A DNA stretch of 64,000 bases, taken from the NCBI RefSeq assembly GCF_001677475.2, contig NZ_CP015229.1; one strand, written 5' to 3'. Below, piece by piece: positions 5,831-55,882 of the stretch (positions within the stretch are counted from its first letter, which is position 1; the number at the start of each line of letters is the position of its first letter). Under the pieces are notes generated by a model. The model made no database searches. It worked only from the letters and a program-made list of their open reading frames with translations, and was not told the DNA's origin. The stretch is from Escherichia coli (GTDB lineage Bacteria > Pseudomonadota > Gammaproteobacteria > Enterobacterales > Enterobacteriaceae). The position numbers and the translations under genes were made by a program.

Positions 5831-6007
5831 AAAAAAGAAAATTTGATGGAGAGTGATGAGAGAATATTACAACACGATGATTTTGCAGAGATTATGAAGA
5901 ACTATACCGGATGACTGGTGATAAATAAAGCAAATAACCAGGATTAATCTGTATTAATTTATAAGAAAGCAACTTAATACCCGCAGAATGATTTCTGCGG
6001 GTAAGTA

Positions 6008-12071
<6,064 letters not shown>

Positions 12072-16122: not shown

Positions 16123-17292
16123 ATGATGCGCCATTGTGGGTGGTTGCTGGGATTGTTATCGCTGATTTCTTTGGCAACACATGCCAGTGACTGGCAGGAA
16201 ATCAAAAACGACGCCAAAGGGCAAACCGTCTGGTTTAACGCCTGGGGCGGCGATACGGCAATTAACCGCTATCTCGACTGGGTTAGCGGCGAGATGAAAA
16301 CCCATTACGATATAAACCTGAAGATTGTTCATCTCGCGGATGCCGCAGACGCGGTGAAGCGCATTCAGACCGAAGCTGCTGCCGGACGCAAAACAGGCGG
16401 TTCGGTGGATCTGCTCTGGGTGAACGGCGAAAACTTCCGCACCTTAAAAGAGGCCAATTTATTACAAACGGGCTGGGTGGAGACTCTGCCCAACTGGCGC
16501 TATGTCGACACTCAGCTGCCGGTGCGGGAAGATTTTTCAGTGCCTACAGAAGGGGCTGAATCGCCCTGGGGGGGCGCACAACTGACATTTATCGCCCGCC
16601 GCGATGTTACGCCACAGCCACCACAAACACCGCAAGCCTTACTGGAGTTTGCTAAAGTCAATCCCGGCACGGTTACCTATCCGCGCCCACCGGACTTTAC
16701 CGGCACGGCGTTTCTTGAACAGTTGCTGATTATGTTGACACCAGATCCCGCCGCATTAAAAGAAGCTCCGGACGATGCGACTTTCGCCCGTGTCACTGCG
16801 CCCTTGTGGCAATTTCTTGATGCGCTGCATCCGTATTTATGGCGCGAAGGAAAGGATTTCCCGCCTTCGCCCGCGCGGATGGATGCTCTGCTGAAAGCCG
16901 GCACATTGCGCCTGTCGCTGACCTTTAATCCTGCTCATGCGCAGCAAAAAATCGCCAGCGGCGATTTACCCGTCAGCAGTTACAGCTTTGGCTTTCGCGA
17001 GGGAATGATTGGCAACGTGCATTTCGTCACCATTCCCGCCAACGCGAATGCCAGTGCTGCGGCGAAGGTAGTTGCCAATTTCCTGCTCTCACCCGATGCA
17101 CAACTGCGTAAAGCAGACCCTGCTGTCTGGGGCGATCCTTCGGTTCTCGATCCGCAAAAACTGCCTGACGGGCAGCGCGAAATATTGCAATCAAGAATGC
17201 CGCAGGATCTGCCGCCGGTACTGGCTGAACCGCACGCAGGTTGGGTAAATGCGCTGGAACAAGAATGGCTACACCGTTACGGTACGCATTAA
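16123..17292 (+). CDS. ynjB: ABC transporter periplasmic substrate-binding protein (thiamine-binding-protein-like)
   Basis: ORF track 389 aa with signal peptide MMRHCGWLLGLLSLISLATHA. Confidence 0.8.
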   Translation: MMRHCGWLLGLLSLISLATHASDWQEIKNDAKGQTVWFNAWGGDTAINRYLDWVSGEMKTHYDINLKIVHLADAADAVKRIQTEAAAGRKTGGSVDLLWVNGENFRTLKEANLLQTGWVETLPNWRYVDTQLPVREDFSVPTEGAESPWGGAQLTFIARRDVTPQPPQTPQALLEFAKVNPGTVTYPRPPDFTGTAFLEQLLIMLTPDPAALKEAPDDATFARVTAPLWQFLDALHPYLWREGKDFPPSPARMDALLKAGTLRLSLTFNPAHAQQKIASGDLPVSSYSFGFREGMIGNVHFVTIPANANASAAAKVVANFLLSPDAQLRKADPAVWGDPSVLDPQKLPDGQREILQSRMPQDLPPVLAEPHAGWVNALEQEWLHRYGTH

Positions 17293-32578: not shown

Positions 32579-32598
32579 TATTAGTTGAATTCATCTCT

Positions 32599-32629
32599 GG
32601 CCTACATTTCCTCAATGACATTGTAGGCC
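32599..32629. repeat. perfect 8-bp inverted repeat ggcctaca-N15-tgtaggcc (REP-like) in the pncA-yeaC spacer
   Basis: Read directly from sequence; GTAGGCC is a typical REP terminal motif. Confidence 0.6.
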
Positions 32630-32738
32630 AGATAATACTTGTCAGTGTTGCATTTAACCTACTTACAGCTAAAACACGACGTCCGAACAAGTATATTTGC
32701 CCTCCCTTAATAACAGGCTTAAATACTAGATAACTCAT

Positions 32739-48754: not shown

Positions 48755-49764
48755 GTGTCAGATCAGATTATCGCCCGCGTCTCGCAATCCCTTGCCAAAG
48801 AACAGTCACTGGAAAGTCTGGTCCGACAGCTTCTGGAGATGCTGGAAATGGTCACTGATATGGAATCAACCTACCTGACCAAAGTGGATGTCGAAGCGCG
48901 CCTGCAGCATATTATGTTTGCCCGTAACAGCCAGAAAATGCACATCCCGGAGAATTTTACCGTCTCGTGGGATTACTCGTTATGCAAACGCGCCATTGAT
49001 GAAAACTGCTTTTTCAGCGATGAAGTCCCTGACCGTTGGGGCGACTGTATTGCGGCACGCAATCTTGGCATCACCACATTTCTGAGCACGCCAATTCACT
49101 TACCGGATGGATCATTCTATGGCACGCTTTGCGCCGCCAGTGGAGTGAACGCGCGGAACAGGTTTTACAGTTATTCGCCGGACTGATTGCACAATATATT
49201 CAAAAAGAGGCGCTGGTAGAACAGCTGCGCGAAGCCAATGCCGCGCTGATAGCGCAATCGTATACCGACTCGTTAACCGGGTTGCCGAATCGGCGGGCGA
49301 TTTTTGAAAATCTGACGACGCTGTTTTCCCTCGCCCGGCATCTTAACCATAAGATAATGATCGCGTTTATCGACCTGGATAACTTCAAATTAATCAACGA
49401 TCGTTTTGGTCATAATAGTGGCGATCTGTTTCTCATTCAGGTTGGCGAGCGCCTTAATACGCTCCAGCAAAATGGCGAAGTTATTGGTCGTCTCGGCGGT
49501 GATGAGTTTTTGGTTGTTTCACTAAACAACGAGAATGCGGATATTTCGTCGCTGCGAGAACGTATTCAACAGAAAATACGTGGAGAATATCACTTAGGTG
49601 ATGTTGATTTGTATTATCCCGGTGCCAGTCTTGGCATAGTAGAAGTCGATCCTGAAACAACCGATGCAGACAGTGCCCTGCATGCTGCCGATATCGCGAT
49701 GTATCAGGAGAAAAAACACAAACAGAAAACACCTTTTGTCGCGCATCCAGCGCTACATTCCTGA
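48755..49764 (+). pseudogene. dgcP: diguanylate cyclase dgcP (yeaP) interrupted by a frameshift between the N-terminal sensor region and the GGDEF domain
   Basis: N-terminal part (GTG 48755 ... stop 49186) and C-terminal part (open from about 49036 to stop 49764, RLGGDEF motif) are in different frames and overlap over 49036-49186. Confidence 0.7.
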
Positions 49765-54068: not shown

Positions 54069-54271
54069 TCGTTCTTTGCAGTAAATAACCTGCGTCATTT
54101 CACCTTTTATTGTTTCCGTTTCGTGTTTTATGGCTTTCCGTATTCTTAATTGTTTAATTTATGTAACATGCAAATAATCAATTTGTTAATCACGACATAC
54201 AACTCATTACCCTGCAAATAATTACAACTGGCAAAAGCCAGAGACGGGCTTTTATGCCCAGGAGATGACTC

Positions 54272-55882
54272 ATGATGAGCAATGTTAAGAAAAAAGATGT
54301 GCCGCTGATAAGCATCAGCCTGGTGGCCATTCTTTTCATCGCAGCTGCATTAAGCCTTTTCCCACAACAATCGGCCGACGCGGCCAACGCAATATACACT
54401 TTTGTTACGCGTACGTTAGGTTCCGCCGTACAGGTATTGGTTTTGCTGGCAATGGGACTGGTGATTTATTTAGCCACCAGTAAATACGGCAATATTCGTC
54501 TTGGCGAAGGAAAACCGGAATACAGCACGCTCTCCTGGCTGTTTATGTTTATTTGTGCCGGTTTAGGTTCTTCTACGCTTTATTGGGGGGTTGCTGAATG
54601 GGCCTATTATTATCAAACGCCTGGATTAAATATCGCACCGCGTTCACAACAGGCACTCGAATTTAGCGTTCCCTACTCCTTCTTCCACTGGGGCATCAGC
54701 GCCTGGGCAACTTATACGCTGGCCTCATTAATCATGGCTTATCACTTTCATGTGCGGAAAAATAAAGGGCTGAGCCTTTCCGGCATTATTGCTGCTATTA
54801 CCGGCGTTCGCCCGCAAGGCCCGTGGGGGAAACTGGTCGATTTGATGTTCCTGATCGCCACTGTCGGCGCACTGACCATTTCCCTTGTTGTCACCGCAGC
54901 AACCTTTACCCGTGGGCTTTCCGCGCTGACCGGTTTACCCGATAACTTTACCGTACAGGCATTTGTGATCCTGCTTTCCGGCGGCATTTTTTGCCTAAGC
55001 TCGTGGATTGGTATCAACAACGGTTTGCAACGTCTAAGCAAAATGGTTGGCTGGGGCGCGTTCCTGCTGCCATTACTGGTGCTGATTGTCGGTCCAACCG
55101 AATTTATTACCAACAGCATCATCAATGCCATCGGCCTGACCACGCAAAACTTCCTGCAAATGAGCTTATTCACCGATCCGCTTGGCGATGGTTCATTTAC
55201 CCGCAACTGGACCGTTTTCTACTGGCTGTGGTGGATCTCATACACGCCTGGCGTAGCAATGTTTGTCACCCGCGTTTCCCGCGGTCGTAAGATTAAAGAA
55301 GTTATCTGGGGACTGATCCTCGGCAGCACCGTCGGTTGCTGGTTCTTCTTCGGCGTAATGGAAAGCTATGCCATTCACCAGTTTATCAATGGTGTAATCA
55401 ACGTCCCACAGGTGCTGGAAACACTGGGCGGCGAGACAGCTGTGCAGCAAGTTCTGATGTCGTTGCCAGCCGGTAAATTGTTCCTCGCCGCATACCTGGG
55501 CGTGATGATTATTTTCCTTGCCTCGCATATGGATGCGGTGGCCTACACCATGGCGGCAACCAGTACGCGTAATCTCCAGGAAGGTGACGATCCTGACCGT
55601 GGGCTGCGTCTTTTCTGGTGCGTGGTAATTACCCTGATCCCGCTTTCAATTCTTTTCACTGGCGCGTCGCTGGAAACGATGAAAACCACCGTCGTACTCA
55701 CAGCCCTTCCGTTCCTCGTCATTTTACTGGTGAAAGTCGGCGGATTTATTCGCTGGCTGAAACAGGATTACGCCGACATTCCGGCTCATCAAGTTGAACA
55801 TTATCTCCCGCAGACACCGGTTGAAGTCCTGGAAAAAACGCCAGTGCTCCCTGCGGGAACCGTATTCAAAGGCGACAACTGA
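54272..55882 (+). CDS. yeaV: BCCT-family transporter (betaine/carnitine/choline type)
   Basis: ORF track 536 aa; start may lie further downstream. Confidence 0.8.

Follow-up and report, generated by a model that had tools for sequence, protein, structure and literature searches.

The gene dgcP (yeaP) of this Escherichia coli chromosome, which encodes a diguanylate cyclase that produces c-di-GMP, a messenger in biofilm formation, has lost exactly 16 nt between two copies of the hexamer CGCCAG, and is very probably a genuine natural loss-of-function allele that was produced by replication slippage between those copies. Judging from the haplotypes on which it occurs, at least two E. coli lineages acquired the identical deletion independently of each other. 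The gene is broken by a variety of other lesions in public sequences, some of them at further short repeats.

Locus and reading frames

The window, by which we mean the whole stretch of 64,000 nt that was analysed (contig NZ_CP015229.1 of assembly GCF_001677475.2), carries dgcP on the plus strand at 48755–49764. Alignment with K-12 gives the entire pseudogene a length of 1,010 nt, against 1,026 nt for the intact gene. The K-12 gene (b1794) forms one ORF of 1,026 nt, and its product is a GAF-GGDEF protein of 341 aa, in agreement with the length of about 341 aa given in the preliminary description of this DNA. In the intact protein the GAF domain occupies residues 17–155 and the GGDEF domain residues 175–330 (Pfam). 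Gene-by-gene comparison leaves dgcP in its usual place as the K-12 orthologue, within a collinear block yoaF-dgcP-yoaK-yoaJ-yeaQ (yoaF upstream, yoaK/yoaJ downstream), and with the same start, stop and GGDEF motif. Outside the gap it aligns from end to end with K-12 and with strain WP4-S18-ESBL-07 (about 25 substitutions in 1,026 nt), nucleotide identity to K-12 being about 98%.

Two ORFs, both on the plus strand, occupy the locus. The first (48755–49186) starts at the GTG at 48755, ends with a TGA at 49184–49186 and encodes 143 aa; translation beside K-12 resolves this product into native DgcP residues 1–129 followed by 14 out-of-frame residues, GVNARNRFYSYSPD, before the TGA. The second is in the GGDEF frame and ends with a TGA at 49762–49764. 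Its mechanical extent is 49036–49764, from a TTG at 49036 (242 aa), while the form preferred by gene callers is 49129–49764, from a TTG at 49129 (211 aa), the latter product consisting of Met-Arg and then native R133 to S341. The GGDEF motif (49495–49509, plus strand; GGC GGT GAT GAG TTT) is the same as in K-12, and lies in the frame of the 49129–49764 ORF. The two frames overlap over 151 nt (49036–49186), and a single ORF covering both GAF and GGDEF is absent. The preliminary description had already read the locus as a dgcP split by a frameshift, with a GTG at 48755, a stop at 49186, a second frame open from about 49036 to a stop at 49764, and no frame spanning both parts; the ORF list agrees with it at every one of these positions. 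In public contigs, gene callers label the two pieces 'hypothetical protein' and 'GGDEF domain protein'.

Two further changes within the gene are absent from all of the haplotypes compared. At 49282–49284 a double synonymous change (CTA to TTG, at Leu182) makes an in-frame TTG at the start of the GGDEF domain, and at 49573 a Gln-to-Lys change turns RIQQQIRG into RIQQKIRG.

The 16-nt deletion

When 48755–49764 was aligned with K-12 and with the closest complete genome, the sole indel in dgcP was an exact deletion of 16 nt. The preliminary description had proposed a small deletion of roughly 16 nt and recommended a pairwise alignment with K-12 yeaP to locate it; the alignment turns the estimate into an exact figure, and K-12, rather than sharing the sequence of the window, has 16 nt more. 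Where K-12 reads GCG-CCGCCAG-CAGTGAGAAG-CGCCAG-TGG, the window reads GCG-CCGCCAG-TGG. The hexamer CGCCAG occurs twice in intact dgcP (length 6, period 16, gene position 381), and the missing nucleotides are gene positions 381–396, so that the lost segment comprises one copy of CGCCAG and the 10-nt spacer. The single copy that was kept marks the deletion junction (49135–49140, plus strand), and the breakpoint can be placed anywhere from 49134/49135 to 49140/49141. The junction k-mer of the deletion allele is TTTGCGCCGCCAGTGGAGTGAACG, and the corresponding intact form, with the extra 16 nt, is CAGCAGTGAGAAGCGC.

Loss of one repeat copy together with the spacer is what replication slippage between short direct repeats classically leaves behind, and by this signature the deletion is identified as a slippage product. 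It is a specific mutation and not a chance feature. Slipped-strand (microhomology-mediated) deletions between short direct repeats were classically described for E. coli lacI. The likeness to these extends to the loss of a repeat copy with the intervening sequence, to a junction that falls within the repeat, and to independent recurrence of the event. The mechanism is no different in dgcP; the lacI deletions come from a mutation-spectrum experiment, whereas the dgcP case is seen in natural isolates.

The sequence of events would be as follows. During replication, the nascent strand would have slipped between the two CGCCAG copies, which lie 16 nt apart, with the loss of one copy and 10 bases. 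Owing to the loss of 16 nt, translation from the normal GTG leaves the native frame after Ser129, adds 14 wrong residues and stops at 49186. The GGDEF part downstream would probably be translated little or not at all, and the cell would lose one of its sources of c-di-GMP.

Distribution of the allele and its haplotypes

Among the 5,417 complete RefSeq E. coli genomes that have the locus, not one carries the 16-nt deletion. With a 101-nt query laid over the junction, all 5,417 fell in the 80–90% identity band, and the matches listed align over 116–117 nt. The exact junction also had no match in JGI metagenome contigs or in the GTDB species-representative genomes. It was found in about 35 contigs (NCBI, Logan, ENA), which derive from isolates and read sets independent of one another, and the exact 143-aa product is recorded from the same three sources. 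The Logan contig of run ERR3309125 is identical to the window at 6,432 of 6,432 positions, and NCBI assembly GCA_018682815.1 differs from it by 1 base. The C-terminal product of the window type is encoded on about 18 contigs, among them a second NCBI assembly (GCA_018683295.1). About 17 further contigs (e.g. SRR28237394, SRR17847259, SRR25824746 and ENA ERZ773152) encode the C-terminal product of the common haplotype (…RIQQQIRG…), which is possible only with the deletion junction. Variants of the N-terminal product (K-12-type Y63, R49H, or Cys for Tyr in the frameshifted tail) had no exact match in the sequence collection.

A table of variable sites separates three haplotypes that carry the identical deletion: A, that of the window; B, represented by loci L009, L010 and L011; and C, represented by L005. 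Haplotype B has many flanking differences from A, the nearest of which (49179) is 45 nt from the junction. Compared with strain 13P460A, in which dgcP is intact, it is identical at 5,949 of 5,949 bases, with the 16-nt deletion as the sole difference, and it follows that the deletion very likely occurred de novo on that background, independently of the lineage of the window. Haplotype C differs from A at −92 and +79 nt. It is known from one ENA metagenome contig at 1.7x, the first ∼52 nt of which do not match the region upstream of dgcP, and this contig end is probably chimeric. Because of the low coverage and the off-locus start of L005, haplotype C is counted as a possible third origin only.

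Independent origin in at least two lineages is thus the reading to which the haplotypes point. A single origin, after which the deletion was moved to other haplotypes by short tracts of homologous recombination, appears unlikely. No difference separates haplotypes A and B over the 323 nt that precede the junction (48812–49134), a tract shorter than about 370 nt would be compatible with the markers, and the third haplotype comes from the one 1.7x contig and may be a chimera. However, such a tract would have to leave haplotype B matching the intact strain at every compared base, including the B-specific base 45 nt downstream of the junction, and L005 has alleles foreign to the window at −92 and +79 nt. 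The donor lineage, moreover, is rare, being missing from all 5,417 complete genomes. Recurrence of this sort does happen in the gene, as a 20-nt slippage deletion at another dgcP repeat is likewise present on two haplotypes (see below).

An IS200/IS605-family tnpB gene (InsQ/TnpB RNA-guided endonuclease) is located between yeaQ and yoaG in L009 (5379–5948) and L015 (5395–5965). The haplotype-B background shares this gene with many complete E. coli genomes; it is absent from the window.

Other lesions in dgcP

Direct repeats that are 6 bp or longer and have a period of at most 40 nt number about a dozen in dgcP; CGCCAG with its period of 16 is among them and is not the best. As a control, the slippage products of ten other dgcP repeat sites were predicted on one haplotype and looked up as exact matches, a search in which a missing product is weak evidence. 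Three of the ten are present in public data, and the DNA was confirmed for two. A 16-nt deletion at the GCTGCGC repeat (dgcP nt 486–501) occurs in L022 (NCBI GCA_037167555.1), and a 20-nt deletion at the TACCGA repeat (dgcP nt 525–544) occurs on two different haplotypes, L023 and L024. The third predicted product, of 148 aa, is recorded as a partial protein only. The 164-aa product of the GCTGCGC deletion can also be reached by another route, a nonsense change of E165 to a stop (nt 493) in L021.

Truncated DgcP products of the same protein cluster revealed three further lesions near codons 181–182: an allele with a palindrome and a TAA, an IS1 insertion and a 1-nt deletion. In L016 and L017 (locus ∼1714–1760, codons 172–186), TCGTTAACCGGGCTACCGAATCGG has been replaced by TCGTTAACCGGTTAACAAATCGG, a net change of −1 nt that places a TAA after Gly181. 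The replacement creates a perfect palindrome of 14 nt, GTTAACCGGTTAAC, and looks like a quasi-palindrome template-switch mutation. In L018 (GCA_949767165.1, locus 1747–2595) an IS1 directly follows dgcP codon 181, and the resulting 181-aa product, which occurs in 184 index blocks of the collection, is shared by this allele and the palindrome allele of L016/L017. The complete genome of strain RS571 has an IS1-like element inside dgcP, and L019 has a 1-nt deletion in a GGG run of the gene. Several of the lesions lie close together in the linker that joins GAF to GGDEF.

Taken together, the slippage alleles, the IS1 insertion, the nonsense change and the 1-nt frameshift indicate that dgcP is repeatedly inactivated in nature, partly by slippage that can be predicted from its sequence. 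Given a recurrent deletion and scattered disruptions of other kinds, loss of dgcP appears to be tolerated by E. coli, or sometimes to be beneficial. The CGCCAG site is one of about a dozen sites of microhomology in the gene, and its recurrence could mean something beyond mutation rate.

Protein products and translation of the remnant

The deletion separates the two domains unequally. The 143-aa product gives a weak and truncated GAF match (Pfam; model positions 2–110 of 133, E = 0.0016), short of a complete GAF domain; this fragment is without approximately the last 25 residues of the domain, the helical linker and the entire catalytic domain. The 211-aa product has a complete GGDEF domain (Pfam; model positions 2–160 of 161, E = 1.4e-41). 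By fusing the TTG at 49129 in frame with native residues 133–341, the deletion leaves a pair of ORFs that jointly miss residues 130–132 only. The closest solved relative reaching into the sensor region is the GAF-GGDEF cyclase 4zmu/4zmm ('diguanylate cyclase'), query residues 107–324 matching 4zmu with E = 3.1e-17. As a distant sequence relative, it was used only for placing the break within the domain architecture, and no structure of DgcP itself was found among the solved relatives.

Shine-Dalgarno pairing energies were compared between the starts of the GGDEF frame, 55 true starts in the window and all ATG, GTG and TTG codons. The medians were −5.5 kcal/mol for the true starts and −1.9 kcal/mol for the background. 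In the GGDEF frame, the values (kcal/mol) were −0.5 for TTG 49036, −3.1 for TTG 49129, +0.4 for TTG 49282 and −1.5 for ATG 49357, the last of which would, as a start, cut into the GGDEF domain. All canonical starts in the frame were scored, and none of them stands above the Shine-Dalgarno background. For re-initiation, no canonical start is located by the upstream stop at 49186, where the nearby candidates are the non-canonical CTG 49183 and ATT 49186, and the overlap (49036–49186) has no slippery heptamer of the form X_XXY_YYZ. A promoter scan gave fewer sites than were found in shuffled controls. A terminator-like hairpin at 49282–49296, inside the coding region, is a weak match to the consensus and was given no weight.

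On the question of whether the C-terminal ORF has its own ribosome-binding site and start, raised in the preliminary description, the sequence shows in-frame TTG codons whose Shine-Dalgarno pairing is at the level of the background. Since the GGDEF ORF is without a credible ribosome-binding site, its translation is probably weak or absent. With neither a Shine-Dalgarno sequence nor a suitable start nor a slippery signal, DgcP function has most likely been lost, a point against this being that the part coding for GGDEF is undamaged and its motif intact.

Similar remnants are known from Shigella flexneri, in which the degenerate cyclase genes dgcE, dgcQ, dgcN and dgcM likewise have a premature stop before an intact GGDEF domain and an alternative frame that starts near the lesion (PMC11327459). 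On expression, three of these (dgcE, dgcQ and dgcN), whose stops precede GGDEF, nevertheless increased c-di-GMP and yielded several proteins (PMC11327459). The present case differs in the gene concerned (dgcP, which is intact in S. flexneri), in the lesion (a slippage deletion rather than a nonsense mutation), and in that the window shows no general gene decay.

It is improbable, on balance, that the locus functions as a split gene, in which a GAF fragment would be accompanied by a sensor-less linker-GGDEF protein, started at TTG 49129 or at another internal codon and making c-di-GMP without sensor control. The preliminary description had named separate production of the two domains among its options; the completeness of the GGDEF domain is compatible with this, while the truncation of the GAF fragment and the background-level Shine-Dalgarno pairing make it unlikely. 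In favour of such a protein, the in-frame TTG ORF made at the junction keeps the whole of the predicted linker helix (residues 133–174), GGDEF domain and motif are intact, the degenerate S. flexneri cyclases are active when expressed (PMC11327459), and the same allele recurs in separate lineages. Yet every canonical start of the GGDEF frame has background pairing, and no canonical start adjoins the upstream stop. Alleles with an IS1 insertion, a nonsense change or a 1-nt deletion cannot yield the sensor-less product, and slippage has also affected other repeats, all of which speaks for general loss rather than for one selected product. In addition, GGDEF domains generally need dimerisation through N-terminal partner domains for their activity. 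A more specific proposal, that a sensor-less linker-plus-GGDEF cyclase, made at a low level and free of GAF control, has been selected and explains why the allele recurs in unrelated lineages beyond the proneness of the site to slippage, must be considered very unlikely.

Genomic context and authenticity of the allele

The window is an ordinary piece of E. coli chromosome, running from chbC via spy, the ast operon and gdhA to dgcP and on to yoaA, and is collinear with K-12. Even the best matches among 5,426 complete E. coli genomes reach no more than 98.6–99.2% identity to it, so its lineage is poorly represented among finished genomes; the nearest are GN06156, WP4-S18-ESBL-07, an O7:H15 ST70 strain and LR778147. 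Of the 57 K-12 orthologues located wholly inside the window, dgcP alone has a frame-breaking indel or premature stop. The c-di-GMP genes cdgI and dgcJ, which are near dgcP, are intact. A Shigella origin of the window was considered, as the allele is missing from complete E. coli genomes and Shigella loses cyclase genes, and was rejected: no other gene among the 57 is broken, dgcP is intact in S. flexneri, and ordinary E. coli of commensal or livestock origin has the same sequence as haplotype B.

Several other differences from K-12 were seen along the window. At topB (minus strand, ∼25146) a harmless in-frame deletion of 3 nt gives 653 instead of 654 codons. At 32584–32728 the window lacks the 9.2-kb ydjE-ydjL block of K-12, which leaves yeaC/msrB almost immediately after pncA. 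Of 5,426 complete E. coli genomes, 1,089 share this form of the junction, which thus represents a common presence/absence polymorphism. Between dmlA and yeaV (54175–54400) there are 225 bp more than in K-12, and the yeaV ORF (54272–55882) encodes 536 aa rather than 481 aa. The longer form of yeaV occurs in 2,930 of 5,426 complete genomes, K-12 having the shorter variant. The genes ynjB and ynjC (16126–18800) and ynjD, ynjE and ynjF (18800–21456) are all intact and show 92–96% identity to K-12, compared with 97–100% elsewhere in the window, a divergence that suggests an old recombination patch.

A sequencing or assembly artefact, with an intact dgcP in the true genome, is highly improbable. The identical junction was obtained via different pipelines (two NCBI assemblies, many Logan run assemblies and one ENA metagenome); the lost 16 nt lie in no homopolymer, and a loss of 16 nt is atypical of sequencing error; the 6-bp repeat is too short for collapse of an assembly graph; and the 57 genes of the window contain no other frameshift. 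Because the junction is reproduced across pipelines, falls outside any homopolymer and lies in a window otherwise free of frameshifts, it is almost certainly not an assembly error. Of the options weighed in the preliminary description, assembly error is contradicted by the NCBI, Logan and ENA assemblies, while a natural pseudogene is supported by the same junction in independent assemblies, at a frequency of 0/5,417 in complete genomes.

Programmed ribosomal frameshifting or bypass that restores a near full-length DgcP can practically be dismissed: the frames do overlap over 151 nt, and a −1 shift within 49135–49186 would give a nearly full-length protein, but the overlap has no slippery heptamer, the two-frame arrangement is not conserved (0/5,417 complete genomes), and the lesion is a recent deletion rather than an evolved signal.

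Significance for c-di-GMP signalling

In K-12, DgcP is reported to be among the cyclases with relatively strong expression throughout all growth phases, and to be under vegetative control (PMC5635695), and it is listed among the cyclases affecting CsgD and curli (PMC12713406). In comparison, the window is without 16 nt and without a single ORF, and its shortened GAF domain is no longer coupled to GGDEF. That GGDEF/EAL genes vary and decay naturally across E. coli and Shigella is already well documented (PMC11327459). A literature search on dgcP/yeaP frameshifts returned Shigella papers and unrelated ones, with no published description of this allele among the papers searched. The allele is new and its kind is familiar: a known, well-annotated gene has become a frameshift pseudogene by a textbook mechanism. 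Its one mildly notable aspect is that unrelated lineages have lost dgcP in parallel, in a way that its sequence predicts.

For annotation, both ORFs are best recorded as one dgcP pseudogene. Of the roughly one dozen c-di-GMP synthases, the allele would remove, or at best cripple, one in a rare E. coli lineage; loss of DgcP should lower one input to c-di-GMP signalling. Slippage has struck three short repeats of the gene, in two cases on more than one haplotype, and IS1, nonsense and 1-nt frameshift mutations have hit it as well. This pattern suggests that some niches can dispense with DgcP or select against it, and it makes dgcP a convenient natural example of parallel gene loss driven by microhomology.
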